DNA from: an uncultured Sulfolobales archaeon
Lineage (GTDB): Archaea; Thermoproteota; Thermoprotei_A; Sulfolobales; NBVN01
Reading direction: 5' to 3'
Assembly (NCBI GenBank): GCA_938083005.1
Contig: CALKCU010000015.1
Location: forward strand, 3,407-67,406
DNA length: 64,000 bases
In this document: positions 5,781 to 47,603 of the stretch, piece after piece
Layout: the number at the start of each line of letters is the position of its first letter
How positions within the stretch are numbered: position 1 is the first letter of the stretch
Notes under the pieces: model-generated
Told to the model about the DNA's origin: nothing
The model's input: only the letters and a program-made list of their open reading frames with translations
The model's database searches: none
Program-made: the position numbers and the translations under genes

Positions 5781-5781
5781 C

Positions 5782-10397: not shown

Positions 10398-11483
10398 GTG
10401 CGCGTGCTTAGGTGCCCCGAGTGCGGGCTAGAGGTCCCGCCACTGTCTCCAAGCAACACCTGCCCCAGGTGCGGAGAGCCCCTGTTCCTGGAGGTCGACC
10501 CGGAGGATATCGTCAGGGAGGGAGCGAGGAGCCTGGTCCCGGGGGACCTAAAGAGGGTAACCCTCGGTGAGGGCGGGACCCCGCTCATCCAGCACGGGAG
10601 GCTTCTGCTCAAGCTCGAGTTCCTCAACCCGACGGGCTCTTTCAAGGACAGGGGAGCGGCTCTCACGATATCGAGAGCCCTGGCGGCCGGCTGGAGGACG
10701 GTGGTCGAGGACTCCTCCGGTAACGCTGGCATAGCCGTGGCCGCGTACGCGGCCAGAGCGGGCATCAGGGCGAGGATCTACGCACCGGCCGACGCGCCGC
10801 AGGGCAAGCTCAGGCTCATAAGAGCCTTCGGAGCCGAGCTCATGACCGCCAGGACCAGGGACGAAGCCCGTAGAGCGGCCCTGGAGGACAGAAGCGGGGT
10901 CTACGTGGGGCACGTCGTTGAGCCGTTCTTCATCGAGGGCGTGAAGGACCTGGCCCTGGAGCTCGTCAGGTCCGGGGAGAGGTTCGACGCGATAGCGGTG
11001 CCCGTGGCCTCCGGCTCACTGTTCCTGGGGCTCTACAAGGGGTTCGAGGAGCTCGCTAGGCTGGGCCTAGTCGATGGCGTGCCCACCATGGTACCCGTAG
11101 AGGCCTGCGGGTTCGCTAAGCTCACGAGGTACCTGAAAACTGTTTTTCTCGCCTGCGAGGAGGGGGCCAGGAGCCTCCTGGCGGACGCGCTTAGGCTGAC
11201 CGCGGTGCCCAGGCTGCGCCAGATCGCGGAGAGAGCCGGGAGGGTCTCACCGTACGTAATCGTGGTAGGGGACGAGAGCATCGGCGAGGCCCTCAGGGAG
11301 CTCTACTCGATCGGGCTACCGGTCGAGCCGACCAGCGCGGCCGTCTACGCTGCGGCCAAGCACGTAGCCAGGGACGTCGGGGGTCGCGTGGTCGTCCCGC
11401 TGACCGGTTCGGGGCTCAAGTACGTGCCCGCTCCCAGCGAGCTCCTCGACAGGTACCTCTTCGGAGCAGCGCCGCCCCGCTAA
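10398..11483 (+). CDS. thrC: Threonine synthase (PLP-dependent, with N-terminal zinc ribbon)
   Basis: The motif NPTGSFKDRGA contains the PLP lysine. The N-terminus has CPECG...CPRCG. The track start TTG 10374 is only 4 nt from the TATA box, so GTG 10398 (VRVLRCPECG) is the more likely leaderless start. Confidence 0.85.
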   Translation: MRVLRCPECGLEVPPLSPSNTCPRCGEPLFLEVDPEDIVREGARSLVPGDLKRVTLGEGGTPLIQHGRLLLKLEFLNPTGSFKDRGAALTISRALAAGWRTVVEDSSGNAGIAVAAYAARAGIRARIYAPADAPQGKLRLIRAFGAELMTARTRDEARRAALEDRSGVYVGHVVEPFFIEGVKDLALELVRSGERFDAIAVPVASGSLFLGLYKGFEELARLGLVDGVPTMVPVEACGFAKLTRYLKTVFLACEEGARSLLADALRLTAVPRLRQIAERAGRVSPYVIVVGDESIGEALRELYSIGLPVEPTSAAVYAAAKHVARDVGGRVVVPLTGSGLKYVPAPSELLDRYLFGAAPPR

Positions 11484-11550: not shown

Positions 11551-12480
11551 TTGGATGAGCTATCGGTGGGGTCGTTGGATAGCGCGTGCGCCGAGCTGGC
11601 GAACCGGGCAGCGCTATCGAAGATGCTGTCCGTAGCGGAGGCCAGGCCTCTGGAAGCCCTGCTCAAGCTCTCGGAGTGCTTGGTCAGGGAGCCAAGGTCG
11701 GCTGTCGTGGGAATCACGGGTCCGCAGGGAACGGGCAAGTCCACCCTGATCTCGCGCTTGGTCGGGGAGCTGAGCAGCGAGGGGCGCACGGTGGCCGCGC
11801 TGCTGGTAGACCCGTCCTCCCCCCTCACCGGGGGCGCTGTCCTCGGCAACAGGCTGAGGATCAGAGACCTCCCGGACGGAGCCTTCGTCAGGAGCGTGTG
11901 GGCCGAGGACGAGAGGGCCGTCCCGCTCAGGGCCCTGATATCGCTCGAGCTGCTGGAGGCGGCCGGCTACGACTACGTGATCGTGGAGACCCCGGGCGCC
12001 GGCCAGGTAAACACGAGCGTCCTGAGGATCAGCGACCTGGTCGTGGTCGTTCTGATGCCCCTCCTCGGAGACGAGGTCCAGGTGATAAAGGCGGGGCTGA
12101 TGGAGATAGGGGACGTCTACGTAGTAAACAAGGCCGACCTGCCGGAGGCCGACCTCATGTACAGCTACGTCAAGCCCTTCGCGAGGGGGAGGCCCGTGGT
12201 AAAGGTCTCAGCTCTCTACGGAGAGAACATGGAGGAGCTGCTGAGCGCTGTGAGGAGCGTGCTAGAGCGGAGGAGTCTGGAGGGTGCGAGGGAGAGGAAG
12301 AGGATCGAGCGGAGGAGGTACCTGCTGGAGGAAGCGCTACTAGAGCTGCTGCACAGCGCGATCCGGGAGGAGCTGGGCAGGGTCGGTGGAGAGGAGCTGC
12401 TGAAGAGACCCGAGGCCTTCGCGGAGCTTGTGAGAGGCTTAAAAGCCAGGCTGGCTAACAGGATTACTGGGGGCCCGTAG
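11551..12480 (+). CDS. meaB: MeaB/ArgK-type G3E GTPase (methylmalonyl-CoA mutase-associated)
   Basis: 309 aa. It has the P-loop GITGPQGTGKST, plus LLVDPSSPLTGGAVLGNRLR and NKADL, the signature of the MeaB/ArgK family. Confidence 0.85.
   Translation: MDELSVGSLDSACAELANRAALSKMLSVAEARPLEALLKLSECLVREPRSAVVGITGPQGTGKSTLISRLVGELSSEGRTVAALLVDPSSPLTGGAVLGNRLRIRDLPDGAFVRSVWAEDERAVPLRALISLELLEAAGYDYVIVETPGAGQVNTSVLRISDLVVVVLMPLLGDEVQVIKAGLMEIGDVYVVNKADLPEADLMYSYVKPFARGRPVVKVSALYGENMEELLSAVRSVLERRSLEGARERKRIERRRYLLEEALLELLHSAIREELGRVGGEELLKRPEAFAELVRGLKARLANRITGGP
12438..12445 (+). promoter_or_regulatory. Box-A (CTTAAAAG) for tRNA-Pro, embedded in the meaB coding sequence
   Basis: Lies 26-33 nt upstream of the tRNA 5' end at 12471. 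The other tRNA promoters in this window show the same spacing. Confidence 0.5.
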
Positions 12481-12566
12481 TTTAGCTTGGCAGAATGCGG
12501 GGTTCGGGTCCACACCTCGCGCGGCGGAAGTCCCCGTGGTCCGGGGTTCAAATCCCCGCGGGCCCA
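12471..12566 (+). tRNA. tRNA-Pro (anticodon CGG) with 22-nt intron
   Basis: Hand fold: acceptor GGGCCCG/CGGGCCC; anticodon stem CGGGG/CCCCG; loop TT-CGG-G, with the anticodon at 12505-12507. The intron spans 12509-12530 at position 37/38. The T arm is CGGGG-TTCAAAT-CCCCG. CCA is not encoded. Confidence 0.85.
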
Positions 12567-12729
12567 CCTACGACATCGCGGCGCCTTACTCTGACAGCGT
12601 CCCCGCGAGCCGGGGCGGCGGGTCGAGCCTCGCATCAACTCCGGGTCTCCCGCCAGGAGACCCTCCGTCCTTCGGACGCGCCAGCCTGAGCCCCCCATCG
12701 AGGAGATATTTTGGCGCCCGCCCAAGCCT

Positions 12730-21417: not shown

Positions 21418-22413
21418 ATGATCTGGAGGGTCCTCTCGTACCCCAGGTACAAGCTGACCTCCTTGCCTACACCCATGGAGAGGGCCGCTAGGCTGAGCAA
21501 GGAGCTCGGGATCGAGCTGATCGTGAAGAGGGACGACGTAATGGAGCTGTGCATGGGTGGCAACAAGGTCCGGAAGCTCGAGTTCATACTGGCCGACGCG
21601 CTGAGCAAGGGGTGCGATGTGCTGATAACCCGGGGGGCCGCTCACTCGAACCACGTGAGGCTCACGGCGGCCGCCGCCAGGAGGGCCGGCCTAGACGTGT
21701 ACGCGGTGATCACGCCGCCCGGCAGCCTAGCGACTCAGGGCAACGTGCTCCTGGATAGACTCCTCGGAGCGAACATAGTCCCGGTCGACAGAGCCGAGGA
21801 GGCCGATGAGACCATGCTAAAGCTCGCCGAGAGGCTCAGATCCGAGGGGAGGCGTCCGTACGTGATCCCGGTGGGGGGAGCCTCCGAGCTGGGAGTGCTG
21901 GGCTACGCGCTAGCAGCCCTCGAGATACTGCAGCAGTCCCTGTCCCTCGGGCTCAGGCCCAAGTACATAGTCCACGCCACGGGAACCGGTGCGACCCAGG
22001 CCGGGCTAGCGCTCGGGCTCAAGCTACTCGGGGCGGCTGACGTAAAAGTCCTGGGGATATCGAACGGCAGGAGGTCCCCGGAGGTCGTCGGGAGGCTGGT
22101 CGATCTCTTCAACTCGACGGCGAGGATGCTCGGAGTGGACCTCAGGGCTTCGGAGGAGGACTTTGAGGTATACGACGAGTACACCTTCGGCGGATACGGG
22201 GTCATAACCTCGGAGGTTGTGGATGTGATGAAGTACGTGGCGAGGACGGAGGGGATAGTCTTGGACCCCGTCTACACCGCGAAGGCCATGTACGGGCTCA
22301 TCGACCTAGCCCGGAGGGGCGCGATAGAGAGGGGGAGCGCCGTAGTGTTCATACACACGGGTGGAACCCCCATAGCTTTCCAGTACGCTTCTGAAGTAGA
22401 GAAGTATCTTTAA
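21418..22413 (+). CDS. PLP-dependent D-cysteine desulfhydrase / ACC deaminase family protein
   Basis: The track ORF starts at 21025, overlapping the glycosylase gene. ATG 21418 (MIWRVLSYPRYKL) is the credible start. The motif GGNKVRKLEF carries the PLP lysine. Confidence 0.85.
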   Translation: MIWRVLSYPRYKLTSLPTPMERAARLSKELGIELIVKRDDVMELCMGGNKVRKLEFILADALSKGCDVLITRGAAHSNHVRLTAAAARRAGLDVYAVITPPGSLATQGNVLLDRLLGANIVPVDRAEEADETMLKLAERLRSEGRRPYVIPVGGASELGVLGYALAALEILQQSLSLGLRPKYIVHATGTGATQAGLALGLKLLGAADVKVLGISNGRRSPEVVGRLVDLFNSTARMLGVDLRASEEDFEVYDEYTFGGYGVITSEVVDVMKYVARTEGIVLDPVYTAKAMYGLIDLARRGAIERGSAVVFIHTGGTPIAFQYASEVEKYL

Positions 22414-22441
22414 CGTCCGAGCCGGAGCACGTGAGCGGTTT

Positions 22442-23284
22442 CTAAGCTGACTCCCGAGACCACCTCCCTAGCGTGGTCGAGTACAGCTGGAAGAGGTAGT
22501 CGGGTCCTGCGTTAAACACTCTCATACCCGACAGGTCGCTCTCCGGGACCCTCCCCGTACACTCCTTGAGCCTCTTGGACAAGAAGCGCTTCCGCTGATT
22601 GAAGAGACACCTAAGGAACTCCTCGTAGCCCCTCAGCTCCTCACTCCACTCCCTCCTTCTCTTGAGGACCACCACCGCGGACCACACCTTGGGTCTAGGC
22701 CTGAAGGAGTCCGGAGGGTACCTCCCGTAGACCTCGACGTTCATGAAGGTCTGGGTGAAGGCCGATATCCTCCCGTACTCCCGGGTCCCCGGTGCGGCGG
22801 CGAGCTTCCTAGCTACATCGTCCTGCAGCACCAGGACGGCGCTCCTGAGTGATGACTTAACCAGGGTCGTCACGACCCGGGACGATACTACGTAGGGAGT
22901 GTTAGAAACGAGGACGCAGCCCTCCCTTAGAGAGCGGATCAGGGGTATACCGTCGGACGCCACCACGTCTACCAGGTCCCTCGAGAACCTCCTCTTTAGG
23001 TAGTCGACGAACCTAACGTCTATCTCCGCGCAGAGTACGTATCTGAAGCGGCTCCCCAGGAACAGGGTGAGAGAGCCGAGGCCCGGGCCGAGCTCGTACA
23101 CGTAGCACTCTCCCCCTGGACACAACTCCTCGAGCCTCTCCAGCACCTCCAGAGCCAGGCGGCAGTCCACCATGAAGTGCTGGCCCAGCCTCTTGAGTGG
23201 TCTGAACTCCCTGATGAGCTCCCGCACTCTCCTCAGCTCCAGGCACTCCTTCGAGGAGTTCGTGAAACCCCCGACTAGCGTCAC
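22442..23284 (-). CDS. rsmA: 16S/18S rRNA adenine dimethyltransferase (KsgA/Dim1)
   Basis: 280 aa. Motifs are LGQHFMVD, the SAM-binding ELGPGLGSLT, and NTPY. Confidence 0.85.
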   Translation of the reverse strand: MTLVGGFTNSSKECLELRRVRELIREFRPLKRLGQHFMVDCRLALEVLERLEELCPGGECYVYELGPGLGSLTLFLGSRFRYVLCAEIDVRFVDYLKRRFSRDLVDVVASDGIPLIRSLREGCVLVSNTPYVVSSRVVTTLVKSSLRSAVLVLQDDVARKLAAAPGTREYGRISAFTQTFMNVEVYGRYPPDSFRPRPKVWSAVVVLKRRREWSEELRGYEEFLRCLFNQRKRFLSKRLKECTGRVPESDLSGMRVFNAGPDYLFQLYSTTLGRWSRESA

Positions 23285-23332
23285 TCAGTTTAAGCTAAAG
23301 AGCCCGACGGGTACTCTACAAGGGCCAGCTGG

Positions 23333-24625
23333 TTGAGCTCGGCGATCGAGGTATCCCTGGACGGAGGTCGGGTGCTCAGAGTCGTCGGCCCGGTAAGGGT
23401 CGAGGTGCTCTCTGGCGTAGTCTTGGTGGTTGGCTCGAGATATCCGGCGGGTTCGTCGTTCGTAGTCCACAGGCTCAGGTCTTACGGAATCAAGGCACTC
23501 TCGCCGGCTAGGCTGCGGCTCACTCTTGGCGAGGGCTCGAGGGTCGAGGAGTGCGGAGAGAGTGAGGAGGTGGTCGACGACTGGCTCAGCGCCTCCGAGT
23601 ACGTAGTGAGGAGGTGCTTAGAGAGGGGGCGGTGCAGGGTCCTGGTGGTCGGCCCGCCGGAATCGGGGAAAACCACCCTAACGGCGTTCCTGGCCAACCG
23701 CCTGAGGGAGGCCGGGTTTAGGGTGGGGGTTATAGAGGGCGATGTGGGACAGGAGGACGTCCTAGTCCCGACCACGATAGCCCTAGCGGAGGTCTCGAAG
23801 CCCGTCCTGTGGCTGAGGGAGCTCGAACCGTCGTCGTTCAGGTTCGTGGGCTGCACCTCCCCTCAGTACTGCTACTCCGAGAGCGTCATGGCCATAAGGG
23901 AGCTCGTGGACGAGGCTGCCAGGATAGGCTTCAACGCCGTGCTCGTAAACACCGACGGCTGGGTCGGCACTGCTTTAGGGATAGAGCACAAGCTGACCAT
24001 CATTAGGTGGGTAAGGCCGGACCTGGTGATAGCGACGAGCGCGGACGTGCACGACGTTATATCCAGGTGCCTCAGCGGATCGACCGAGGTGTTACAGGTT
24101 CGGAGGCCGGCTATCGTGCGGGAGAGGAGTAGGGAGGAGAGGCGCGAACTGAGGACCCAGGCGTACAGGAGGTACTTTAGCAGGGGGAGGGTGAGGAGAG
24201 TGAGGCTGGAGGGGGTCGCTTTGTTCAGTGCGTGTGCTCTCGCGGGGCGTCCCCTCTCGAGGGATGAGCTAGCAAGAGCTCTCGGGGTTCCCAGTAGTGA
24301 GCTGGGGGCGGTGCTCTACTCGTCCAGGGTGGGGGACACTCTTTACGTAGTCGCCAGGGAGTTCGCGGGCAGTAGCGCGAGCTTCTCGGACTCCAGGAGG
24401 GTTGTAGTTATGAGTCCCGAAGAGATTAAGGGAGCGCTAGTTGGGTTGCTGGGGGACGGAATGCGCGAGGTTGGCGTCGGCATAATATGGGGAGCGGAGT
24501 TCGAATCGCGAGAGCTCACTATCCTAACCCCGTGGGAGGGGGGGATAAGGGGCCTGATCATTGGCAAGATAAGGCTCAACGAGAACTTCGAAGAGGTCGG
24601 TAGGGTGACGAGATGTACTCTCTAG
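23333..24625 (+). CDS. Clp1/Grc3-type P-loop polynucleotide 5'-kinase homolog
   Basis: 430 aa. It has the P-loop VVGPPESGKTT with a Walker B-like VNTDGW. Domain order is as in archaeal Clp1. Confidence 0.65.
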   Translation: MSSAIEVSLDGGRVLRVVGPVRVEVLSGVVLVVGSRYPAGSSFVVHRLRSYGIKALSPARLRLTLGEGSRVEECGESEEVVDDWLSASEYVVRRCLERGRCRVLVVGPPESGKTTLTAFLANRLREAGFRVGVIEGDVGQEDVLVPTTIALAEVSKPVLWLRELEPSSFRFVGCTSPQYCYSESVMAIRELVDEAARIGFNAVLVNTDGWVGTALGIEHKLTIIRWVRPDLVIATSADVHDVISRCLSGSTEVLQVRRPAIVRERSREERRELRTQAYRRYFSRGRVRRVRLEGVALFSACALAGRPLSRDELARALGVPSSELGAVLYSSRVGDTLYVVAREFAGSSASFSDSRRVVVMSPEEIKGALVGLLGDGMREVGVGIIWGAEFESRELTILTPWEGGIRGLIIGKIRLNENFEEVGRVTRCTL

Positions 24626-25905
24626 CTAGAGTAGTGGAGGCCCAGGCCAGCAGGGGGTACGTCAAGAGGATAGCCGGAGAGCTCGAGCCCGACATAGAGC
24701 CAACCAAGCACCTCGCGGAAGCCGATAGGACCGGGTCCACGATCCTGTTCCGGGTAAGAGGCTCGGGGCTGGAGTGCGTTGGCGGAGTCATCAACACGAG
24801 GGAGAAGCTCTACGAGCTGCTCGGAGCGGGGGGAGACGAGGAGGCTTACAGTAAGCTCTCAGCAGCCCTCAGCGGTAGGGCCCAGGACGGCTTCAGAGTG
24901 CTGGGGTTCAGCGAGCTCTTCAGGCCTTTCGAGGGGTCCCTGACCTCCCTCCCGGCAGTGAGGTTCTACAGCATTGACGGCGGGAGGTACGTGACGTCAG
25001 CGATAGTGATAGCTAAAACCCCGGATCTCGATTCGTACAACGCCTCCATACATAGGCTCATGCTGTTGAGCGAGCGCGCCGTCGCCATAAGGCTGGTCCC
25101 CCGCCACCTCTACAGGATATACGAGCTGAACAGGCGATCGGGCGCCGAGACTAGGGTTGCCGTCGTGATCGGGGCCCACCCACTCGTAGAGCTCGCCTCG
25201 TCAATGTCTCCGCCCTACGGAGTCTTCGAGCTCGAGCTCGTGGAGAAGCTGGGCGGAGGTCCCCTCGAGGTAGCGTACACCCCCGCGTATGGCCTCCCGG
25301 TTCCCGCGCACGCTGCTGTAGTATTCGAGGGCAGGATCACGGGAGATTTGGTGAAGGAGGGTCCCTTCGTGGACATACTCGGGCTCCCGGATAGGGTTCG
25401 CGACCAGCCCGTCCTAGCGGTAGACCGGGTGTACGTGTCCAAGGACCCGGAGTACTTTCACGTCATACTCCCCGGAGGGGTGGAGCACTTCTTGCTGATG
25501 GGCTTCCCCAGGGAAACGGCTGTGTGGGAGGCTGTCAGGAAGGTCGTGCCCAGGGTAGTGAAAGTCAGGCTAACCAGGGGCGGGTGCATGTGGCTCCACG
25601 CGGTGATATCTATCTCTAAGGAGAGTGAAGGAGACGGCAAGTCGGCCATAATGGCCGCCTTCGCGGCCCACCCAAGCCTCAAGCACGTAGTCGTAGTTGA
25701 TGAGGACATAGATCCCGACAACCCCGAGGAGGTGGAGTGGGCCATAGCCACGAGGTTTCAAGCGAGTAGGGGGCTGGTGGTGGTGAGGGGCGCCAGGGGG
25801 TCGACGCTGGATCCGAGCTCCGAAGACGGGCTCACGGACAAGGTGGGTGTGGACGCTACCGCTCCCCTGAACCGCCGCGAGCTCTTCACGAGGCTCAGAG
25901 TCTGA
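24613..25905 (+). CDS. UbiD-family decarboxylase; candidate trans-anhydromevalonate-5-phosphate decarboxylase
   Basis: 430 aa with UbiD-like sequence throughout. It lies directly upstream of both aconitase-X subunit genes. The function is inferred from context. Confidence 0.8.
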   Translation: MYSLARVVEAQASRGYVKRIAGELEPDIEPTKHLAEADRTGSTILFRVRGSGLECVGGVINTREKLYELLGAGGDEEAYSKLSAALSGRAQDGFRVLGFSELFRPFEGSLTSLPAVRFYSIDGGRYVTSAIVIAKTPDLDSYNASIHRLMLLSERAVAIRLVPRHLYRIYELNRRSGAETRVAVVIGAHPLVELASSMSPPYGVFELELVEKLGGGPLEVAYTPAYGLPVPAHAAVVFEGRITGDLVKEGPFVDILGLPDRVRDQPVLAVDRVYVSKDPEYFHVILPGGVEHFLLMGFPRETAVWEAVRKVVPRVVKVRLTRGGCMWLHAVISISKESEGDGKSAIMAAFAAHPSLKHVVVVDEDIDPDNPEEVEWAIATRFQASRGLVVVRGARGSTLDPSSEDGLTDKVGVDATAPLNRRELFTRLRV

Positions 25906-25918
25906 CGCGGGTGAGCGC

Positions 25919-27079
25919 GTGCATCTGACTAGGGAGGAGGAGAGGATGCTGTCCGGAGAGCTCGGAGAGCCCGTGGCCAAGGCTATCGAAGTGCTCGTGA
26001 GCGTGGGAGAAGCCCTCGGTGCTGAGAGGCTCATCGAGGTTGCGCACGCGCACGTATCCGGGGTCTCGTACTTCAACGTAGGAGACCCCGGCCTGGAGTT
26101 CATTGAGGACCTATCGAGGGGGGGAGCTAGGTTCGCCACCTTCACAACGGCAAACCCCTACGCCGCACTGGCGGTTTACGGCTCCAAAGGCTTCAACGAG
26201 GAGCTCGTTGCCAAGCAGATGAGGATTGTCGAGGCGCTGAAGAGGATGGGAGCGAGAAGCTTCACCTGCGCTCCGTACTACGTGAGGACTCCCTCGGTGG
26301 GGGAGCACCTGGCCTGGGCGGAGAGCAGCGCCGTGCTTTACGCGAACAGCGTGCTCGGGGCCATGACCAACAGAGAGCCCGGTATCGTAGCCCTGATGGC
26401 CGGGATCGCTGGCCGGACCTACCTGGGGAAGGCCCACGAGGGGCTTCCTGGAGAGGTGGAGTACGTAGTGGACATCGAGAGGCCGAGCGATCCCTCCGAG
26501 GCCGGAGCTTACGGACTGCTCGCCGGCGAGCTCCTGGGGAGCTCCACACCGCTGGTCCGGGGTCTGGAGGGACTTCCGGATAGCTTCCTCAAGGAGTTCC
26601 TAGCAGCCTTGGCCACGAGCTCTCCGTCGCACCTGGCGGTCCTAGAGGGCGTAACCCCGGGCTACCGCAGCGTCGGCGCGGCGAGCGCCGAGAGGGTATC
26701 CCTCGGGAGATCCGACATATCCAGGCTCTACTCGGAGGCGAGGAGTTGCAGCTCGCCCCTCTACTTGGTCGGATGCCCTCACCTATCCCTCGAGGAGCTC
26801 GAGGAAGTGCTGCTTAGGGTGGAGGGGGTCGAGAGGGGGGAGCTCTGGCTGACCGTCGGCGAGCACTACGCTCGCTACCTCGTGGGCGTGCGGCGCGCGG
26901 AGAGAGTGAAGATACTGACCGGGGCCTGCGCTGTGGCTACGAGGTTAGACCTCTTGGGGGTCGACTGCGTGATAACGGACTCCGCCAAGGCTCTCGCCTA
27001 CCTACCCAAGCTCGCCAACGTCAGGGCGTTCCTCGTAAAGAGGAGAGACCTGCTGAGGATGGTGTCCGACCTTGACTGA
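25919..27079 (+). CDS. Aconitase X catalytic (large) subunit, DUF521; candidate phosphomevalonate dehydratase large subunit
   Basis: 386 aa with a GTG start. The N-terminus MHLTREEERMLSGELGEP...IEVAHAHVSG is typical of DUF521/AcnX. Confidence 0.8.
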   Translation: MHLTREEERMLSGELGEPVAKAIEVLVSVGEALGAERLIEVAHAHVSGVSYFNVGDPGLEFIEDLSRGGARFATFTTANPYAALAVYGSKGFNEELVAKQMRIVEALKRMGARSFTCAPYYVRTPSVGEHLAWAESSAVLYANSVLGAMTNREPGIVALMAGIAGRTYLGKAHEGLPGEVEYVVDIERPSDPSEAGAYGLLAGELLGSSTPLVRGLEGLPDSFLKEFLAALATSSPSHLAVLEGVTPGYRSVGAASAERVSLGRSDISRLYSEARSCSSPLYLVGCPHLSLEELEEVLLRVEGVERGELWLTVGEHYARYLVGVRRAERVKILTGACAVATRLDLLGVDCVITDSAKALAYLPKLANVRAFLVKRRDLLRMVSDLD

Positions 27080-28073
27080 GGTCCCCCTATACCCGATCGG
27101 CAGGGCCCCCAAAGAGAGGGTCTGCGGAGAGCTTCTGGTGTACGGAGGCTTCGTGTCGCCCCTCGGGGACGTAGACCCGGAGACCGGCCGCCTGAGGGGC
27201 GGTGGCGCTCTAGGAGGCAAGGTGGTAGCCGTCAAGGGCTTCACCGGCAGCACCGTTGGGCCCTACGTCGTCTACTCGCTGAAGAAGAGGGGGCTGGCGC
27301 CCAGAGCCCTCGTCGTCGAGCAGCTCGACGCCAACGCCGTCGCCTCGGCGGTGGTAGCCGGGATCCCTCTCTACAGAGTCGACAGCCTGTCCGAGGTCGA
27401 GAGGCTTTACGGTGAGGGTCTACGCTTCGTCTGCGCGGAGTCCGGGAGGCTTAGACCCCGCGGGCTCCTGATAGCAGTAGAGGGAGTAGACGGCGCCGGC
27501 AAGACCACGGTCTCGAAGAGGCTGCGCGACATCCTCGAGAGGTGCGGCTTCAGGGCGGTCTACACGTACGAGCCCTACTACGACGCGGTGAGGTCCATAT
27601 TCGAGTCGAGGTCCATGGAGCTGACGCCAGCCGTCGAGGCCCTGCTGCTGGTCGCCGACAGGTACTCCCACTACGAGTCCGTGATCAGGAGGGAGGTAGA
27701 GAGGGGGAGCGTGGTGGTCCTGGACAGGTACAAGTACTCCACGATAGCCTACCAGGGAGCGGCGGGCCTCCCGATCGAGTGGCTCCTGGAGATCCAGAGG
27801 TACCTCCCGGATCCTGACCTCGCGATATACCTCGACGTAGACCCTGAGGAGGGGCTGAGGAGGAAGGCCGCGAGCGGGCCGAGGTCCCTCGCCTACTTCG
27901 AGGAGGACGTGGAGAGGATCAGGAGGGCCCGGGAGATATACCTAGGCCTGGCGTCCGAGGGCAAGCTCGTGCTGGTCGACGCGAGGGTCGAGCTTTCCAA
28001 AGTGATGGAGAAGGTGGTCGACGCGATCGAGGAGAGGCTCGGGCTCGACCTCAGGGAGTGCTCGCGGGAGTAA
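27072..28073 (+). CDS. tmk: Fusion: aconitase X swivel (small) subunit, DUF126 + thymidylate kinase
   Basis: Single 333-codon frame. The N-terminal ~125 aa are DUF126-like (GKVVAVKGFTGSTVGPYVV...APRALVV). The C-terminal ~200 aa begin with the dTMP kinase P-loop LIAVEGVDGAGKTT. It overlaps the large-subunit gene by 8 nt. Confidence 0.75.
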   Translation: MTEVPLYPIGRAPKERVCGELLVYGGFVSPLGDVDPETGRLRGGGALGGKVVAVKGFTGSTVGPYVVYSLKKRGLAPRALVVEQLDANAVASAVVAGIPLYRVDSLSEVERLYGEGLRFVCAESGRLRPRGLLIAVEGVDGAGKTTVSKRLRDILERCGFRAVYTYEPYYDAVRSIFESRSMELTPAVEALLLVADRYSHYESVIRREVERGSVVVLDRYKYSTIAYQGAAGLPIEWLLEIQRYLPDPDLAIYLDVDPEEGLRRKAASGPRSLAYFEEDVERIRRAREIYLGLASEGKLVLVDARVELSKVMEKVVDAIEERLGLDLRECSRE

Positions 28074-28223
28074 GCCTCGTGGGGTCGAGAGGACCCCGCG
28101 GTCGTAGAGGAGGCCGCGTGAAACCCCGATGACGCGGGGATCTGCCCGGCCTCGGGAACCCAAGCTCGCGGAAGCCGGGCCGACCGGGGCGAGACTGGGG
28201 GATCAAAACGGGTGGAACCGCCT

Positions 28224-28394
28224 CTAGACGAACCTGAAGTATATCCCGGCGGGTACTCGGTAGTAGCACGGACCGCACCAGGGACACCACCGGGACGGGT
28301 CGACCATGTACTGGTACTCGCTCACGGCCACATATACGAACTCGCTGATGTTGTAGTCGTTTTGGATGTCCTCATAGTCTCCGTGATTTACCAT
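28224..28394 (-). CDS. Small Cys/Tyr/Trp-rich ORF (56 aa), hypothetical; below the ORF-track size cutoff
   Basis: Hand translation: MVNHGDYEDIQNDYNISEFVYVAVSEYQYMVDPSRWCPWCGPCYYRVPAGIYFRFV*. Third codon positions are mostly G/C. It may be the tail of a frameshifted larger gene. Confidence 0.35.
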   Translation of the reverse strand: MVNHGDYEDIQNDYNISEFVYVAVSEYQYMVDPSRWCPWCGPCYYRVPAGIYFRFV

Positions 28395-28686
28395 GCCACC
28401 GGAGATATATCGATGATCCCTTGGCCGACAAGCTTACCATGAATGCCGAGGCGAAGCCTGCGGCGGCAGTGCATGGCGCGGACCCGATCCCGAAACCGAG
28501 CGCCGCGCAAATGCCGAGCGCGGCGATCGACTCGGCCGGGATGGACACCTCGAAGTCGGCCCCGCACTTATCGAAGTGCTTGAAGATCTGCTCTAGTGCT
28601 ATGCTCTCGCCGGGGTCGAGGCGCCCATCAGCTAGGGACGTCTCCGGGATACTGAGCCTCTGCCAAGTAGTGCCGCTAAAGAACAT
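28372..28686 (-). CDS. Hypothetical protein with one hydrophobic Ala/Gly-rich segment
   Basis: 104 aa ORF that overlaps the next ORF by 23 nt in another frame; see findings on the frame-hopping chain. Confidence 0.35.
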   Translation of the reverse strand: MFFSGTTWQRLSIPETSLADGRLDPGESIALEQIFKHFDKCGADFEVSIPAESIAALGICAALGFGIGSAPCTAAAGFASAFMVSLSAKGSSIYLRWHGKSRRL

Positions 28687-28714
28687 CTGCAGCAGGTCGC
28701 TATGCGGTAGCCCT

Positions 28715-29125
28715 CTATCCGCTCCTCCCGAGATCCGAGATTATATAACCGCTGGTTAGGACGTCTCCGGTGAAGCTCTCAACGTCGTCCCCGATGTACT
28801 CGCAGGAAGAAGCGTAGCAATAACAGTAGTAGACTTTCCACACACGGTAGATAGATCTCGCCCATATCCACGCCCACACCGCTTTGAGCGGTGATAGTAT
28901 ATCGCTCCAATGGAAGTAGTAAGTGGCTCCGCCCCACGTGAAGCCGCCGCCTTTCCACAAAGTCACGTCGGGCCACACGCCTTTCGAGATCTTGTCGAGT
29001 ATCTTCCCGGTAGTCAAGGTGGGGTAGATCCCGACCTTCTCCCCTCTCATGCCTATGTTTATAGACACAGTGACTGAGCCGCTATACCAGTAAGCGTTCT
29101 CGGCTATCAGCACCGGCGTCTTCAT
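28715..29125 (-). CDS. Hypothetical W/Y/C-rich protein
   Basis: 136 aa (…TLWKGGGFTWGGATYYFHW…VWAWIWARSIYRVWKVYYCYCYASSCEY…). Its frame stays open upstream into the 3' end of the preceding gene without a start codon. Confidence 0.4.
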   Translation of the reverse strand: MKTPVLIAENAYWYSGSVTVSINIGMRGEKVGIYPTLTTGKILDKISKGVWPDVTLWKGGGFTWGGATYYFHWSDILSPLKAVWAWIWARSIYRVWKVYYCYCYASSCEYIGDDVESFTGDVLTSGYIISDLGRSG

Positions 29126-29202
29126 GTAGTACTTTCCGTTTTGGTACCTGAAGTAGTCTACCGGCAGCCTCGAGAGGAGGTCCTCGGGCCTGATCTCCGC
29201 TA

Positions 29203-29865
29203 TCAGTTCCCTGTAGATGTAACCGTGAAGGCCTCCGCCTCGAGTCTCGAGACGTGACCGTACCTCACGTCGAGGTGCGCGAACGTCTGCGAACCTCTCA
29301 CCAGGCCCGCCGAGACCCTCAGGGACCTCCCCCTCGCTATCTCGACGGGCTTGTAGGACAGAGAGTCGTAGGCCTCGAACATTATCTCACCGGAGCTTCC
29401 GTTGTATATGAATAGCCTGACTATCAACCCCGAGTAGGTTCCCTCGGGGTCCCCTCCCCTCGACTCGTAGACTGAGACCCACCCCCTGGAGATCTCGAGG
29501 AGCTCCTCCGACTCGAAGAACATCGCCCTCCTGGGCTTAGCCGTGATCTTGACCAGCGTCACGACATCCTCCCTCCACCTCGGGTCCGGGGGAGCCATAG
29601 CGTTGATCTCGAGGTAGATGAGAGTGTCCGGGCGGTCGAGGAGGTGGGTCACGTCCACGAGCCTCCCTCTTATGGGATCGACCTCGTAGAGCCTCAGCTC
29701 GAGGAGTATCCCGGGACCTGCGGCGGCGTTGGTCGCGCTCGGGACACCGTACACGGCAGCGTAGATAGCGTAGAGGGCCACCGACAGGGAGCCGGCCAGC
29801 AGGAGGGCTAGGACGGGCACTCCTTTTAGGCTACTGCGAAGGATGCGCAACCGCTCCACCGTCAT
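29203..29865 (-). CDS. Membrane-anchored hypothetical protein
   Basis: The track start is 29922, but a TTTTATTA box (minus strand) lies about 29 nt upstream of ATG 29865 (MTVERLRILRSS). A signal-anchor segment VPVLALLLAGSLSVALYAIYAAV follows. Confidence 0.5.
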   Translation of the reverse strand: MTVERLRILRSSLKGVPVLALLLAGSLSVALYAIYAAVYGVPSATNAAAGPGILLELRLYEVDPIRGRLVDVTHLLDRPDTLIYLEINAMAPPDPRWREDVVTLVKITAKPRRAMFFESEELLEISRGWVSVYESRGGDPEGTYSGLIVRLFIYNGSSGEIMFEAYDSLSYKPVEIARGRSLRVSAGLVRGSQTFAHLDVRYGHVSRLEAEAFTVTSTGN

Positions 29866-30076
29866 TGACACCAGCGCACCTTCCCCTAATAAAACCTCTT
29901 GCCGGATTCCGCTGACCGGCATCGATCCGCTCCCCTCCCGCGCTCCACTCCGCGCGGGCGGCTCAGTTTATGGGGCCGAGCTGGGGCTTCGTGCCAGCCG
30001 CTCGGAGGGGTCAGCCCGCGGACGTAGGATCGGGCTGCCGCAGTTGTAATTTGTAACTAGTGCCGCCCTAGACCGG

Positions 30077-31456
30077 GTGCTGGCCATTGTCCGGGGGCTG
30101 CAGAACACGGCGCTAGCCCTCGTGCTGGCCTTCTTGGCGACCGTGGCTAGCGTCGGCGTAGTCCTGTTTCAGGACGACCTGAGCGTAGTCTTCTCCAGCT
30201 GGGCGGATGGCAAGCCCAAGATGATGGTCAAGCTCGAGATACCCGTACCCGGAGTCGGCGCGGACTTCTGCTACGTGGCCGTCATGAGGTTCCCGGGCCG
30301 CCTGAGGCCTACGAAGGCTAACGAGCTCGAGATGGTCCACTCGGGCAGGCACGGACCCGGCGAGACCGTCGTAGTGAGGGAGCTCCACCGCGCGATAGTA
30401 GCCGAGGAGAGCTACGACCCCAGGACCGGGGAGTACGGGGTCGAGTACTACGAGCCGGTCGAGTACCTCGCCATGGTCCTATGCGTGGGGGGAGGCGGGA
30501 CCGAGTACAAGTACGGGAGGGTCCACCAAGTGTTCCCGAGGAGCCTAGTGTGGACCCACAGAGTGGAGGTAGAGCTCGTCGAAGAGAAATCGGGGAGGAA
30601 AGCGGAGAGCCCGTCCGCGGGCCACGTAGCGCTGGTCAGCTCCGCTGACGGCGTTACGTCTATCACCGCCCCCGTCAGCTGCGACCTGGGGAGCGTCCCG
30701 AGCATATGCTCAGGCGAGCACGTGAGGAGGGAGTGCTTCACTTACGTTAAGGGCCCGGTCCTCCGCTCTCTGGAGGGCCTCACGACCTCCTTCGCGATAT
30801 ACGGGCAGGCCGATCCGCGCCCCTCAGTGGTGTACCTGGAGGCCTACTACGACATCGTGCCGGCACTAGCCCCGGACCTCTGTAGAAGAGAGCCGGAGTG
30901 GAAGAGTGCGGGGAAGAAGGAGGTGGTCGCCTTGGCCGACTCGGAGGCCTACCCACTCTCAGGTAACATGCGGGACAGAGTGTACCTCGGAGTAACGTTC
31001 GTTTACACGCAGGGCTGCTATTCCGACCCGTTTACGGGAGGCTTCTGCTGGTGGAGTATACACCCCACGGACGTCTCTAGTGTCAGGAGGAGCGAGCAGC
31101 TGGTCGCGGACGGGACCCTGCCGTGGTACATGCTGGAGCTGGCGAGCTACGACCCGCACCCGCCCGTGGTGCCGTCCTACGTCAGAGAGGCCGCAGACTA
31201 CGTGAAAAAGATACCCTTCGCACCGCCGAGGCTGACGGACAACATACTCGCGGACATCGGAGTGGCCTTCACGGTAACCGTCGAGTGGAAGTGGGTATCG
31301 TTCTCCCTCGCGATAAGCTTCTACGGAGCGGGCAGGGACGACGGGTACTATACGACCCCGTACGTGAGGGTCGAGAACCCGGCCTGGAGGACCTACCGGT
31401 GGTGGTACAAGGACGACGACCCGATGACCTACGAGCTCTTCTTCAAGTGGAAATGA
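30077..31456 (+). CDS. Secreted/membrane-anchored hypothetical protein, W/Y/C-rich
   Basis: 459 aa. It has an N-terminal hydrophobic segment (ALALVLAFLATVASVGVVLF) and many paired Cys. The C-terminus is ...AWRTYRWWYKDDDPMTYELFFKWK. I recognise no family. Confidence 0.55.
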   Translation: MLAIVRGLQNTALALVLAFLATVASVGVVLFQDDLSVVFSSWADGKPKMMVKLEIPVPGVGADFCYVAVMRFPGRLRPTKANELEMVHSGRHGPGETVVVRELHRAIVAEESYDPRTGEYGVEYYEPVEYLAMVLCVGGGGTEYKYGRVHQVFPRSLVWTHRVEVELVEEKSGRKAESPSAGHVALVSSADGVTSITAPVSCDLGSVPSICSGEHVRRECFTYVKGPVLRSLEGLTTSFAIYGQADPRPSVVYLEAYYDIVPALAPDLCRREPEWKSAGKKEVVALADSEAYPLSGNMRDRVYLGVTFVYTQGCYSDPFTGGFCWWSIHPTDVSSVRRSEQLVADGTLPWYMLELASYDPHPPVVPSYVREAADYVKKIPFAPPRLTDNILADIGVAFTVTVEWKWVSFSLAISFYGAGRDDGYYTTPYVRVENPAWRTYRWWYKDDDPMTYELFFKWK

Positions 31457-31810
31457 CCTGGTAACGATAGGCTTTTCCGCTCTCCGCCCTGCTCGGGAGA
31501 CCCGCGGGCGGGCTGGGGTTTATGGTCCCGCTCGCGGGTATGCCTATGGAGTGCCGGGTCCGGCGGGCTCCACTGATTCTCGAGGCGTGGATCGCTCGGT
31601 GATGTACCTTGAAGCCCTCCCCAGGCTCGGGCGCGGTCCTCTGAGCGAGCCGGCCTGGTGGGAGAGCTGATCCAGCTGGTGACCGCGGGTCGCTAGGCGT
31701 GACCGCGTGCCGGGCTCCAGCCCCGCTCCCGCACCCTGCTCGCGGCGTGGGAGCCCTCTAGCGCGGGCTGTAGTGAAAAGAGTGGAGAGAGCTCGAGGCG
31801 GCGAGAGCGC

Positions 31811-33226
31811 TCAGGAGCAGTACTCGTTGAGCAGGGAGTCCAGGGCCCTGACCACGTACTCGTATATGCCCTGGCCCATGATGATCGACCTGTTCATAGC
31901 GTAGGACCTGAACTCCCCCTGGTCCACCAGCTCGCAGGGCCCTCCCCGGGCTCTGACGAGGTCTATAGCTAGGTCTACGTACTCCACGGTGTTGGGGATG
32001 AGGAGCTCGGGCTTGGTGTTGATGTTCGCGTATATCCCCTTGAGCTCCCCGCTGCTGCTGAAGTACTGGTGGACTACGTAGGGGACCCCCTCAACCACGG
32101 TGGTCTTAATGACGTCGCCGACCTCCTTTCTAACCCCGAGGCCGTCGTACACACCGCTGCTCCTGGTCCTCCTCTCAAGGACCAGCCTGAACCCGTCGCC
32201 GTGGTTGACCTCGACGACGGTGGCCGCGCCGAGCTTTATGCTCTCGCCGTTGAGGGTCTTGTGGCTTATCACGAGCTCCCCGACCTCCTTGATGATCTTG
32301 GCCGCGAACCTCCTCACGATCCTCCTCAGGGTCTCCCTCTCTACGTACGCCGAGACCTCGTCTAGCAGCTCAGCCAAGTCGCGGTAGAGACTCCTGGAGG
32401 ACCTTATCATGTGATGATAGTCGGCGGTCGGCGCGACGGTCCTCCTCACTTCGTCGAGCCTCAGCTTGGCGTCGTAGGTCAGGTGCGCGACTATTATCTT
32501 TTCGCCCTTGGTGATCGCGGAAACCTCTCTTACGTCACTCACGCTCCCCTCGAGAACGCTGAGCTGCTCGACCAAACGCGGGAGTTCGGCGGTGATAGCC
32601 TCTAGATCGGCCTCGTCCGCGTTGCTCCTCCACTTGATGCTCACCCCCCTCCTAACGTATTGAGACGAGATGCTGAGCAGCTCGGATATCCTCGCCTTGT
32701 TCTTCAGATGGGGGCTGAAGAGAACGCGGGAACCCCTCCATACTACTGCGAAGTCTCCTACCACTCTCATCCCGGGCACCACGACCATCCTCTCACTCGG
32801 CTGTACGGGCACCCTGATTACCGATGCGAGTATGATCGCGCCCTCCCTGCACTCCCGGTACTCGACCATCTCGGCGGGTCCGTAGGGCGTTTTCACGATA
32901 CACCTACCGTCCCTCATACCCTCGACGAGGACCATTAGCGTGGCGTACAGCCCCACTGAGGGAACGTAGGTAACGGCCTCGGGGATGTGCTCGATGAGGG
33001 TCTTGGCCACGGCCTCGGCGTGATCCGAGTGCCCTATTACGAGTATCTTCGAGGTGTCGTCGTTGTCCGTCTTGACCGTTACGTCCGCTGGGAGCCCCCT
33101 GTTTGTCGACAGGCGCAGCCTCTCGGCGAGGGCATCGCTGAGGTCGACGAGAGTGTACCCCTCCTCGTGGAGGATCTTGGAGATAGCGGTGGAGTAGATA
33201 CCGCGCACTCTCACCTTGACGCTCAA
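31811..33226 (-). CDS. FAU-1/AubA-type RNA-binding protein (probable RNase E/G-like ribonuclease, DUF402 C-terminus)
   Basis: The track start 33280 overlaps the upstream gene. TTG 33226 is preceded by GGAGG and gives MSVKVRVRGIYSTAISKIL..., matching the conserved FAU-1 N-terminus as I recall it. Confidence 0.75.
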   Translation of the reverse strand: MSVKVRVRGIYSTAISKILHEEGYTLVDLSDALAERLRLSTNRGLPADVTVKTDNDDTSKILVIGHSDHAEAVAKTLIEHIPEAVTYVPSVGLYATLMVLVEGMRDGRCIVKTPYGPAEMVEYRECREGAIILASVIRVPVQPSERMVVVPGMRVVGDFAVVWRGSRVLFSPHLKNKARISELLSISSQYVRRGVSIKWRSNADEADLEAITAELPRLVEQLSVLEGSVSDVREVSAITKGEKIIVAHLTYDAKLRLDEVRRTVAPTADYHHMIRSSRSLYRDLAELLDEVSAYVERETLRRIVRRFAAKIIKEVGELVISHKTLNGESIKLGAATVVEVNHGDGFRLVLERRTRSSGVYDGLGVRKEVGDVIKTTVVEGVPYVVHQYFSSSGELKGIYANINTKPELLIPNTVEYVDLAIDLVRARGGPCELVDQGEFRSYAMNRSIIMGQGIYEYVVRALDSLLNEYCS

Positions 33227-33240
33227 AGCCTCTACCCTCC

Positions 33241-33525
33241 TCAGTCCCTGATGCTCGATAGTATCGCGATTATGTTCCATATCATCGTTCTAGCGTAGGA
33301 GGGCATGTTCGGGTCCTGACTTATCTCGTCTAGCACGCTCGCCGCGTTGGCAGCTCTCACACCGGGCGACAACGACCTATCGTTGAGCATCTTCAGAGCT
33401 TCGAAAGCGGCCCTCCTTATGTTCCTGGGGATCCCCGAGTCCACGATGATCCTGTTGAGCATCGTAACGACCTGGTTCAGTTTCATCTCGTTTATCTGGT
33501 CCTTGCTTATGTCGGGTCTGCCCAA
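33241..33525 (-). CDS. UPF0147 family small helical protein
   Basis: 94 aa. The motifs IPRNIRRAA...L...SL.PGVRAANA...L.EIS.DPNMP..ART.IWN match the archaeal UPF0147 pattern. Confidence 0.7.
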   Translation of the reverse strand: MGRPDISKDQINEMKLNQVVTMLNRIIVDSGIPRNIRRAAFEALKMLNDRSLSPGVRAANAASVLDEISQDPNMPSYARTMIWNIIAILSSIRD

Positions 33526-33651
33526 CTCTCAACCCTCACAACCTGTACCCAGGAGTCTTAAAAGTGAGGAACATCCGCCCACGCCACGCCGGTGGAACTC
33601 CTGTTCAGCGAACCCGGAGGGGCTGGAGCAGAGAGAAGGGTCCTGCGCTGA

Positions 33652-33897
33652 CTAAACAGCTCCCTCGCCCGATCGGCGTCGGGAGGCTTCGGACGGGGAG
33701 GTCCTCCTCGGTCTATGAGGGCTTATCTTGATGCTTTCGAGCGCCGGGGTCTTCAGCTTCTTACCGCAGTGGGGGCAGTTCGAGCCCAGCTTCGCGATGA
33801 GCTCCGAGGGCGTGGGCAACCCGTAAGAGTCCTGCCCGACCCTAAGGAACTCGTAGAGGACGTGATTGCAGGAGCCGCACCGGTAAATAACTGGCAA
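33652..33897 (-). CDS. Small zinc-ribbon protein with basic C-terminal tail (hypothetical)
   Basis: 81 aa. The TTG start is preceded by GGTGAGG. Motifs are CGSC...CPHCG, followed by an R/S/P-rich tail. Confidence 0.5.
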   Translation of the reverse strand: MPVIYRCGSCNHVLYEFLRVGQDSYGLPTPSELIAKLGSNCPHCGKKLKTPALESIKISPHRPRRTSPSEASRRRSGEGAV

Positions 33898-44153: not shown

Positions 44154-44471
44154 GGGGGGCGTGCGGCCCCCGCCTTCGCCCAGCAGCTCACCTGCTCGAG
44201 GACTCCCCACGCCGTCCTCCATCCGGTGACCCGCGAACGCCGGTGCCGGGGGTTAGGTTGCTCCCTTCCGGGCCTGGCCGGGTTCCCCCCGCGAAGGCGG
44301 TAGACCCTCCCCTCCGGGAGGGCCTCCGCCACCACCGGCCCCGCGGGGCGGACTTCACCGCTGACGCGGGGGCCTCCGAGCGGGAGCCGCCGGGCGGGCT
44401 AGGTTACTGGCCCCGCCTTACGCCTTCGGGTACGGGAGGTGGCGAACTCCCAGCCCTACCCGCACGCCCCC
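44154..44471 (-). ncRNA. Signal recognition particle RNA (7S/SRP RNA)
   Basis: The minus strand contains the universal helix-8 motif GGCCAGGCCCGGAAGGGAGCAACC. The 5' GGGGGCGTGCGG pairs with the 3' CCGCACGCCCCC over 12 bp. At about 318 nt it matches archaeal SRP RNA size. A TTATAA box lies about 26 nt upstream. Confidence 0.85.
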
Positions 44472-46205: not shown

Positions 46206-47498
46206 TCAGGGGATCCAGAAGTGCCTTATATACGATATATAGAACCCCGCGACTATGGCGGTACCTATCACTCCAGCTACGTTGGGTCCCAGCGCGTGGT
46301 AGAGCACGTAGAGACCGGGTTTAGCGAGCTGTGCCTCCCTCTGCGCTACCCTAGCGGATATGGGGACCGCCGAGACGCCGGCGCACCCTATCACCGGGTT
46401 GACCTTACCCCTCGTAGCAAAGTAGAGCGACCAGGCGAACAACAGCCCCCCAGATGTGGAGACGGCGAACGCTATCAAGCCCAGGGCCAGTATCACGAAG
46501 GCCCTGATGACGAAGTCGAGGATGGCTATGGGGGAGGCCTCCGGCACGTACTGCAGCAGGAAATCGTAGGAGAGGGTCGCGCCCACTCCCAGCATCGTGA
46601 GTATGGTCGCTATGTCGAGGAGGGGGTCGGCCATGGTCTTGAAGTACCTCTCGAGCTCGGCTATCTTGGCGGAGGCCTCCTTGACGATGTTGCCCAGGGC
46701 TAGCGCTGCTACGAGCGGAAACGCTGCCGGGACCAGGGCGCCCACCACGAGGAGGCACACTAGCCAGAACACGAGTACGTGCCCCGGGGTCACCTCCCTG
46801 GGGCTCGGCATCTCCACGGCTCTGTACTTCCTCGGCACGAGGGCCCTAATTATGGGCGGCTGAATCACCGGTACCAAGGCGATGTAGCTGTAAACCGCGA
46901 TCGTAAGGGGTCCCACTAGGTGGGGCGCTATGTTCACTGCGGTGTATATCGTTGTCGGTCCGTCAGCCCCGCCGACGACCCCTATGGCCATAGCCTCGTT
47001 CAGCCGGAATCCGAGGGTTAGAGCGGTGAGCGTTACCACGGTTATCCCGAGCTGAGCGGCGGAGCCTATCAGAGCGCCCGCGGGGAACGATATCAGCGGC
47101 CGGAAGTCCGAGAGCGCGCCTATGCCAGCGAATATGAGTATCGGGCCCACCTCGCTTCTGACCACGAGGTGGTATACCCATCCGAGGAGCGATGTAGCCT
47201 CCGGCGAGCACACCTTCGTGAAGCCCTCGAATTCTATCACGTTCACTAACCCCTTGATCCCTTCGAGCTCTGCCGGGAGCCGACCGCTCAGATTCTGGCA
47301 CACGTACCTAGCTAGATGGAGGCCCGGCGCGTTAGCCAGGATCATCCCGAGGCCTATGGGTATCAGTAGAAGAGGCTCGACGCCCTTCTTCACAGCCAGC
47401 AACACTAGGACGGACCCCCAGACTATGAATATAGCACGTATGGCGAGCTCCTGGGGATCGCCCAGGGCCAGTCCGGGAAACAGTATGGAGGGATCCAT
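46206..47498 (-). CDS. oadB: Na+-translocating decarboxylase beta subunit (OadB/GcdB/MmdB family)
   Basis: 430 aa polytopic protein. The motifs FAGIGALSDF and GVVGGADGPTTIY are typical of this family. Confidence 0.85.
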   Translation of the reverse strand: MDPSILFPGLALGDPQELAIRAIFIVWGSVLVLLAVKKGVEPLLLIPIGLGMILANAPGLHLARYVCQNLSGRLPAELEGIKGLVNVIEFEGFTKVCSPEATSLLGWVYHLVVRSEVGPILIFAGIGALSDFRPLISFPAGALIGSAAQLGITVVTLTALTLGFRLNEAMAIGVVGGADGPTTIYTAVNIAPHLVGPLTIAVYSYIALVPVIQPPIIRALVPRKYRAVEMPSPREVTPGHVLVFWLVCLLVVGALVPAAFPLVAALALGNIVKEASAKIAELERYFKTMADPLLDIATILTMLGVGATLSYDFLLQYVPEASPIAILDFVIRAFVILALGLIAFAVSTSGGLLFAWSLYFATRGKVNPVIGCAGVSAVPISARVAQREAQLAKPGLYVLYHALGPNVAGVIGTAIVAGFYISYIRHFWIP

Positions 47499-47571
47499 GA
47501 CTCAGCACCGCACTCGCATCTTCCCTCAAGAATAAAAGCCTTTGGAGGTCTCAGGCCAGTGGCATTAAGAG

Positions 47572-47578
47572 TTTTAAG
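47572..47578 (+). promoter_or_regulatory. Box-A (TTTTAAG) for tRNA-Ile
   Basis: Lies 26-32 nt upstream of the tRNA 5' end. Confidence 0.5.
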
Positions 47579-47603
47579 TGCTGGCGCGAAGGAAAAACCC
47601 TGG

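Follow-up and report, generated by a model that had tools for sequence, protein, structure and literature searches.

Pseudogenes frameshifted by slipped-strand events are found in bacteria as in archaea. They feature tandem duplications of short units and changes in the number of units of dinucleotide runs, and carry several lesions within one dispensable gene, located in a variable genomic segment. Adjacent open reading frames (ORFs) set in different frames, open across their overlaps and jointly encoding one protein, also mark genes read by programmed frameshifting or bypassing, such as fucA of Saccharolobus solfataricus (-1), bacterial prfB (+1) and gene 60 of phage T4 (hop). A chain of four such ORFs spans positions 28224–29958, on the minus strand, of a 64,000-nucleotide (nt) stretch of DNA of an uncultured Sulfolobales archaeon (contig CALKCU010000015.1; the whole stretch is called here the window). 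The four ORFs are very probably pieces of a single gene of ~545 codons, encoding an uncharacterised membrane-anchored archaeal protein and broken by three small insertions or deletions (indels), hence a real pseudogene. The window gene shares the traits listed above for slipped-strand pseudogenes, differs from them in no essential respect, and is assigned to this category.

The closest intact proteins make up a family which includes TCELL_0472 of the cultured archaeon Thermogladius calderae 1633 (AFK50897.1/WP_048162963.1). All named members are annotated as hypothetical proteins. The window copy shows full-length collinear homology to the family, at about 33–57% identity, and shares with it a hydrophobic N-terminal helix followed by a beta-rich body, the motifs YxKTPVLIAxN, GFTWGG, WIWARP, GLPHS, DGxLDPGE, NHG and PAGIYF, and a C-terminal Cys cluster. 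Family members have an uninterrupted frame. In contrast, the window copy has three frame changes and encodes no full-length protein, and is therefore viewed as a pseudogene of the TCELL_0472-like family, rather than as a functional member.

The initial annotation had described four chained minus-strand ORFs in different frames, with both frames open at every junction, and re-reading of the sequence gave the same picture: three frames are used, and the overlaps are as extended as described, or wider. ORF1 lies in frame 2 (29958 to 29203), and features ATG codons at 29922 and 29865; ORF2 is in frame 1 (29386 to 28715), ORF3 in frame 2 once more (28740 to 28372), ORF4 in frame 0 (28433 to 28224). 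Two frames are simultaneously open over 29386–29203, 28740–28715 and 28433–28372, at junctions 1, 2 and 3, respectively. As had been noticed, the frame of ORF2 carries no ATG, GTG or TTG ahead of 29125 (none in 29386–29126), and the peptide strings quoted at that time are found in the translations. The pieces had also been called rich in Trp, Tyr and Cys. This holds for Tyr and Trp, both enriched in the product obtained by repairing the gene as detailed below (7.0% and 2.6%, respectively), but not for Cys (1.7%, 9 residues). Codon-usage log-likelihoods, with 21 long window ORFs as the training set, prefer frames in the order 2, 1, 2, 0, and switch frame at about 29300–29240, about 28760 and about 28400, the same three places as the junctions. 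The frame hops are therefore real features of one coding region, and the pieces, which according to the initial annotation might have proven non-coding by codon statistics, are still coding-like.

Homology connects the four pieces. Their conceptual fusion (568 amino acids, aa), used as search query, matches 10 intact proteins of 512–581 aa, at 33–55% identity and with 88–96% of the query covered, and the multiple alignment of the fused product with its relatives is collinear end to end. The fused pieces align at full length with about 35 intact single-ORF proteins (512–590 aa) of hyperthermophilic archaea. The BLAST comparison suggested in the initial annotation thus retrieved intact single-ORF relatives, and not homologs kept as four separate conserved genes: relatives hold one uninterrupted ORF. 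Used to scan genome and metagenome collections, the family alignment identified 41 related loci. The reading frame is unbroken in 37 of the 39 loci checked; about 35 loci are complete, and feature an open frame of 515–630 codons. A family profile hidden Markov model (HMM) of 536 positions, built from intact relatives only and leaving out the window copy, yielded four abutting collinear matches in the window, in frames 2, 1, 2 and 0 (limits in Table 1), which in order cover HMM positions 13–535.

The initial annotation had also considered an operon of small Cys-rich proteins. Accordingly, gene fission would have generated four genes encoding small proteins rich in Cys, Trp and Tyr, each with its own start. 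Every ORF indeed has an ATG, and the overlap between ORF3 and ORF4 resembles that of coupled genes. However, the ATG codons of ORFs 2 to 4 fall at internal sites where, in the single-chain relatives, Met, Val or Leu is conserved: ATG 29125 aligns with the family motif Y[VM]KTPV, ATG 28686 with L-M-x-x-F-F-S-G-T, ATG 28394 with G-x-x-x-N-H-G. Upstream of each of these codons homology goes on in the new frame. In frame 1, about 30 conserved codons, which include invariant P, L, P, Y and F residues, precede ATG 29125 in a region devoid of start codons. The internal location of the ATGs and the homology found upstream of them lead to reject the four-gene operon. Moreover, junctions 2 and 3 fall beside or inside beta strands of a confident AlphaFold model of the family, the products of ORFs 2 to 4 would be devoid of signal or anchor sequences, and no relative is split in this four-gene way. 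A set of four genuine genes is thus regarded as highly improbable.

The nature of two of the three lesions can be read from the DNA. At junction 2, the heptanucleotide ATCTCGG is tandemly duplicated, and the deletion of one copy restores the sequence TSGYIISGGADRGLPHS / DDVESFTGDVLTSGYIISGGADRGLPH, in which the invariant I..G...G.P motif is back. Junction 3 reads TCGATATATCTCC (28413–28401). The most parsimonious lesion is here a 2-nt loss, of one AT unit, in the (AT)n tract. Addition of one AT unit gives SSIYISGGMVNHG (S-S-I-Y-I-S-G-G-M-V-N-H-G), which has the length found in all relatives, and the residues SSIYISGG found in protein P0008. Lesion 1 is less sharply delimited, as the score profile is flat (645–648 bits over 29290–29222), with a weak optimum at 29233–29222. 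By the family alignment and the profile match, the linker in which the lesion falls is shorter in the window than in most relatives, by roughly at least 8 residues, and the usual Cys of the relatives is missing. Because of the short linker, a deletion of 3n+1 nt is likely, though not proven. The near-repeat CTCGAGA/CTCGAGG (about 29250–29237) was considered as the cause of lesion 1, and rejected, as a 7-nt duplication shifts the frame the wrong way. By repairing lesions 2 and 3, and inserting one N at junction 1, a protein of 545 aa is read from ATG 29865, without internal stops and with a family-profile score of 648 bits. In the window copy, P is changed to S in WIWARP, and G to E in IPxG; both columns are invariant in the other 36 sequences.

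The repairs bear also on programmed recoding, the third possibility raised at the outset, by which the full-length protein would be made through one -1 and two +1 shifts, or else by hopping over 7 nt from one TCG codon of the duplication to the other. Features of the locus are compatible with it: both frames are open over each junction, no in-frame stop is found within any piece, a coding codon usage is kept throughout, and the tandem duplication supplies matching take-off and landing codons. In contrast to fucA, prfB and gene 60, however, the window gene has no slippery site (X XXY YYZ heptamers are found nowhere in the ORF1 frame), and by homology the -1 change falls at least 16 nt ahead of the ORF1 stop, in ordinary sequence. 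Skipping a single base, as in a +1 ribosomal slip, gives at best products that score below those of the mutational repairs on the family profile, by 5.3 bits at junction 2 and 7.2 bits at junction 3. Breaks are not conserved, as relatives are uninterrupted at the junction positions, and the two broken loci of the 39 mentioned above carry other lesions. Each junction is of a kind unrelated to the other two, and we know of no precedent for three different recoding events in one gene. Recoding found no support in these data, and its likelihood is deemed minimal.

The window copy is best explained, with a good degree of confidence, as an ordinary, recently dead gene, neither recoded nor part of an operon. 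This corresponds to the first alternative of the initial annotation, a gene for a secreted or membrane protein of ~550 aa decayed by three frameshifts, and is supported by homology, profile matches and repairs. The original gene would have extended for ~545 codons from ATG 29865 to the TAG at 28224, probably behind the TATA-like box at 29894–29887. In archaeal promoters the TATA box is found at a usual spacing from the start. The spacing of the TATA-like box would fit a leaderless crenarchaeal transcript, and makes 29865 a better candidate for the original start than 29922. The product would have been held in the membrane by an N-terminal helix, acting as anchor or signal anchor, and the remainder would have formed a large ectodomain, mostly beta and rich in aromatic residues. 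The frame would have been broken by three independent mutations of the replication-slippage type, namely the -1 change in the linker, the 7-nt duplication and the loss of the AT unit. Only piece 1, encoding the membrane anchor and the N-terminal domain (~220 aa), may still be translated from the original start; ORFs 2 to 4 are out-of-frame remnants, and their apparent start codons conserved internal codons. The full-length product is presumably no longer expressed. The gene, dispensable and probably acquired horizontally, would now be decaying.

Other convincing frame breaks were not detected in the 64-kb window by codon-frame scoring. The candidate frame-broken pairs checked either are separate genes with different Pfam domains, or give no evidence of split domains, and the flanking genes have lengths equal to those found in the closest genome. 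Three breaks in 1.6 kb, versus none in the other ~60 kb, point to relaxed selection rather than to a uniform error rate. The type of lesions is in line with mutation. Among spontaneous pyrEF mutants of Sulfolobus acidocaldarius, 95 out of 108 were indels, and 1 was chain-terminating (PMC2688765); given this spectrum, three indels and no nonsense changes are expected in a hyperthermophilic crenarchaeon. The case documents the inactivation of a gene by slippage-type lesions (tandem duplication, loss of a dinucleotide unit) in a hyperthermophilic archaeon, in agreement with the preponderance of indels among mutations scored in Sulfolobus (PMC2688765). Decay of the family is found also elsewhere. 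In the Sulfolobales metagenome-assembled genome (MAG) SMAG_U13334 (locus L012, 6001–7362), a TGG to TGA change hits the invariant Trp of GFTWGG, whereas L005 and L008, which are syntenic with L012, are intact; at locus L044 family homology is split over three frames. Both are independent cases of decay, in other assemblies.

Some data weigh against a true pseudogene. The window appears to come from a metagenome-assembled contig, as P0177, encoded on a contig of 68,763 nt, is 100% identical to the dTMP kinase fusion protein of the window (described below), and the three indels might have been introduced by assembly or polishing into a gene which is intact in the organism. Conserved columns were examined for surplus substitutions, which would betray long-standing decay, and none were found: out of 96 core-invariant columns, 6 are changed in the repaired protein, versus 5–7 in other singleton lineages, and the repaired protein thus has the look of the product of an intact gene. 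It follows that either decay set in recently, or the test has little power, or the gene is really intact. The window holds 5 perfect 7-nt tandem repeats, versus about 4 expected by chance, and lesion 2 carries weight because the repeat lies in the 26-nt junction window and its removal restores a motif, not because of rarity. In genome and metagenome collections, no closer relative with an intact copy was found above 55% identity; the ancestral DNA at the junctions is consequently deduced from protein conservation, and lesion 1 is not pinned. On the other side, neither readable lesion is a homopolymer-length error, one being a 7-nt tandem duplication, the other a change of a dinucleotide unit; frame-broken genes were not found elsewhere in the 64 kb; the chance that three random errors in 64 kb all hit one particular 1.6-kb gene is ~7e-4, by our own arithmetic; and broken family members occur in unrelated assemblies, too. 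We infer that the lesions are real mutations, and consider a sequencing or assembly artefact unlikely.

The genomic setting suggests that the gene is accessory. A gene beside it, encoding an aconitase X (AcnX) swivel domain fused to dTMP kinase (Tmk), has a 76%-identical orthologue (P0178) on a 432-kb contig (locus L046). By blastn, window nucleotides 21418–28078 match L046 nucleotides 2327–9004, and window nucleotides 31810–33566 match 9521–11277, both at ~82% identity. Between the two synteny blocks, the window has 3,731 nt (28079–31809), L046 516 unrelated nt. This 3.7-kb segment sits between the conserved Tmk-fusion and DUF402 genes. Its absence from the nearest available relative marks the gene as dispensable; by sequence comparison, this is an accessory, lineage-specific gene. 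As for gain versus loss of the segment, the direction of the event is one that we infer. Direct repeats flanking the segment, and a terminator, were searched for, with no convincing result, and neither mobility genes nor tRNA genes were seen in or beside it.

An exhaustive profile search identified 167 cluster representatives of the family (E <= 1e-3) among 1.84 billion proteins. Most clusters fall within hyperthermophilic Thermoproteota. Hosts include Desulfurococcaceae, other 'Sulfolobales' MAGs, Pyrobaculum, Thermofilales MAGs and one Archaeoglobaceae lineage, a patchy distribution which fits horizontal spread. Family gene neighbours vary by lineage, and across 38 family loci none recurs beyond closely related genomes. 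Two intact paralogues reside in one 'Sulfolobales' MAG (CALIBI01, loci L007 and L011), on separate contigs. Many proteins of 440–655 aa (P0060–P0135) make up a sub-group which has only the C-terminal module in common with the family, matching profile positions about 238–534. The C-terminal beta module thus appears to be an independent evolutionary unit, associated with varied N-terminal parts. Neither the pieces nor 19 family members gave anything above noise when scanned against Pfam, NCBIfam and PHROGs, the comparison of the family profile to PDB sequences gave nothing at E < 0.4, and a literature search for the locus tag TCELL_0472 gave no match.

Hydropathy exceeds 1.5 over residues 11–41 of the repaired product. 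The AlphaFold2 model of the family member P0001, derived from a 19-sequence alignment (predicted local distance difference test, pLDDT, 87.5; predicted template modelling score, pTM, 0.85), is confident, and places a helix at residues 3–32 ahead of an N-terminal domain of beta structure. A linker, predicted with less confidence, leads to a large beta module, which is made of strands 16–22 residues long and holds a short helical, hydrophobic insert rich in Gly, Ala and Cys. Modelled alone, the C-terminal module has a pLDDT of 86.4. As a working guess, the intact protein would be found at the cell surface, anchored in the membrane and exposed to the outside, with a beta-rich structure stabilised by disulfides.

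Foldseek searches of the PDB with the full-length and the C-terminal-module models gave lists dominated by aerolysin-type pore-forming proteins (3kog, Dln1, lysenin, LSL, parasporin-2, Cry23/51, epsilon-toxin, botulinum HA70). With the full-length model, the best aerolysin-type match is 3kog (E = 8.4e-5), alone at that level among proteins of this type; the C-terminal module gave no match at E <= 1e-3 (E >= 6.7e-3). With either model, aerolysin-type matches have TM-scores <= 0.28, and probabilities mostly < 0.5. A search of the viral library BFVD gave nothing useful. Aerolysin and ETX/MTX2-type proteins share with the family models very long paired beta strands. In contrast, profile and Pfam searches revealed no sequence similarity between the two groups, and the family differs by its N-terminal membrane helix, and by a uniformly hydrophobic Gly/Ala(/Cys) stretch in place of an amphipathic insertion hairpin. 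The predicted resemblance is hence a weak one, a lead and not a classification. It is conceivable, but doubtful, that the intact family is a membrane-anchored archaeal relative of aerolysin-type beta pore-forming proteins, a toxin or cell-surface effector gained horizontally and repeatedly lost; if so, the window would show one such loss in progress.

For annotation purposes, a single pseudogene entry should take the place of four hypothetical proteins, one per ORF, and the locus is not a recoding candidate. The case points to a small uncharacterised family of anchored, beta-rich proteins with a confident predicted structure and no clear fold relative, patchily distributed and subject to recurrent decay. 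T. calderae is a cultured host of an intact copy, open to study. The value of the finding is modest, consisting mainly in a correct annotation, and in a minor lead to an unstudied archaeal protein family.

Table 1. Coordinates of the probable pseudogene, its putative lesions and the surrounding lineage-specific segment in the window.
Feature	Position	Strand	Remarks
TATA-like box TTTTATTA	29887..29894	-	putative; centre ~25 nt upstream of ATG 29865; read from sequence
Pseudogene segment 1, frame 2	29222..29865	-	N-terminal transmembrane helix (residues about 15-41) and N-terminal beta domain, as predicted; HMM 13-201
End of segment-1 frame, TGA	29205-29203	-	
Lesion 1, net -1 (loss of 3n+1 or gain of 3n+2 nt)	29222..29290	-	poorly conserved inter-domain linker
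Pseudogene segment 2, frame 1	28735..29221	-	HMM 210-375
Lesion 2, 7-nt tandem duplication ATCTCGG ATCTCGG, frame +1	28728..28741	-	
Pseudogene segment 3, frame 2	28405..28734	-	HMM 369-484; holds hydrophobic Gly/Ala-rich stretch
Lesion 3, CGATATATCTCC	28401..28412	-	one AT unit lost from (AT)4 run, the most parsimonious reading
Pseudogene segment 4, frame 0	28224..28404	-	HMM 482-535; C-terminal WCPWCxPCYY...PAGIYF motif
Stop TAG of segment 4	28226-28224	-	
Lineage-specific segment, 3.73 kb	28079..31809	.	pseudogene and 459-aa orphan gene; blastn synteny

The second gene of the lineage-specific segment (30077–31456, plus strand), divergent from the pseudogene, encodes a 459-aa orphan membrane protein; its N-terminal helix is hydrophobic, and its C-terminus rich in aromatic residues. 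The protein has no match in Pfam or NCBIfam, and no detectable similarity to the pseudogene family. It was considered as a paralogue or a linked partner and is neither; the gene is absent near family members elsewhere.

Additional features were noticed in the flanking regions. The gene at 27072–28073 (plus strand) encodes, in one chain, the aconitase X swivel domain (PF01989/DUF126) and dTMP kinase; the AcnX gene, of which the swivel domain is the small subunit partner, is located directly upstream (25919–27079). Fusions of ~330 aa of the same type are found also in ~19 proteins of related 'Sulfolobales' MAGs (P0177–P0195). Look-ups by exact product gave no match for this fusion, ORF2, the 459-aa protein, the product of a 708-aa gene or P0177. 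A second variable spot, directly downstream of the UPF0147 gene, corresponds to 33567–33694 in the window and to 11278–15541 in L046, and measures ~130 nt only in the former, ~4.2 kb in the latter, where it includes a 975-aa gene without Pfam match. The transfer-messenger RNA (tmRNA) called by ARAGORN at 47454–47681 (plus strand), which overlaps a tRNA-Ile (47604–47681), is almost certainly a false positive, since the window is archaeal, as marked by an archaeal signal recognition particle RNA at 44160–44466, and Rfam gives no tmRNA. Two tRNA matches are over-long, 103 nt at 57905–58007 (minus strand; found by Rfam, not by ARAGORN) and 98 nt at 12471–12568 (plus strand), which suggests intron-containing archaeal tRNAs.

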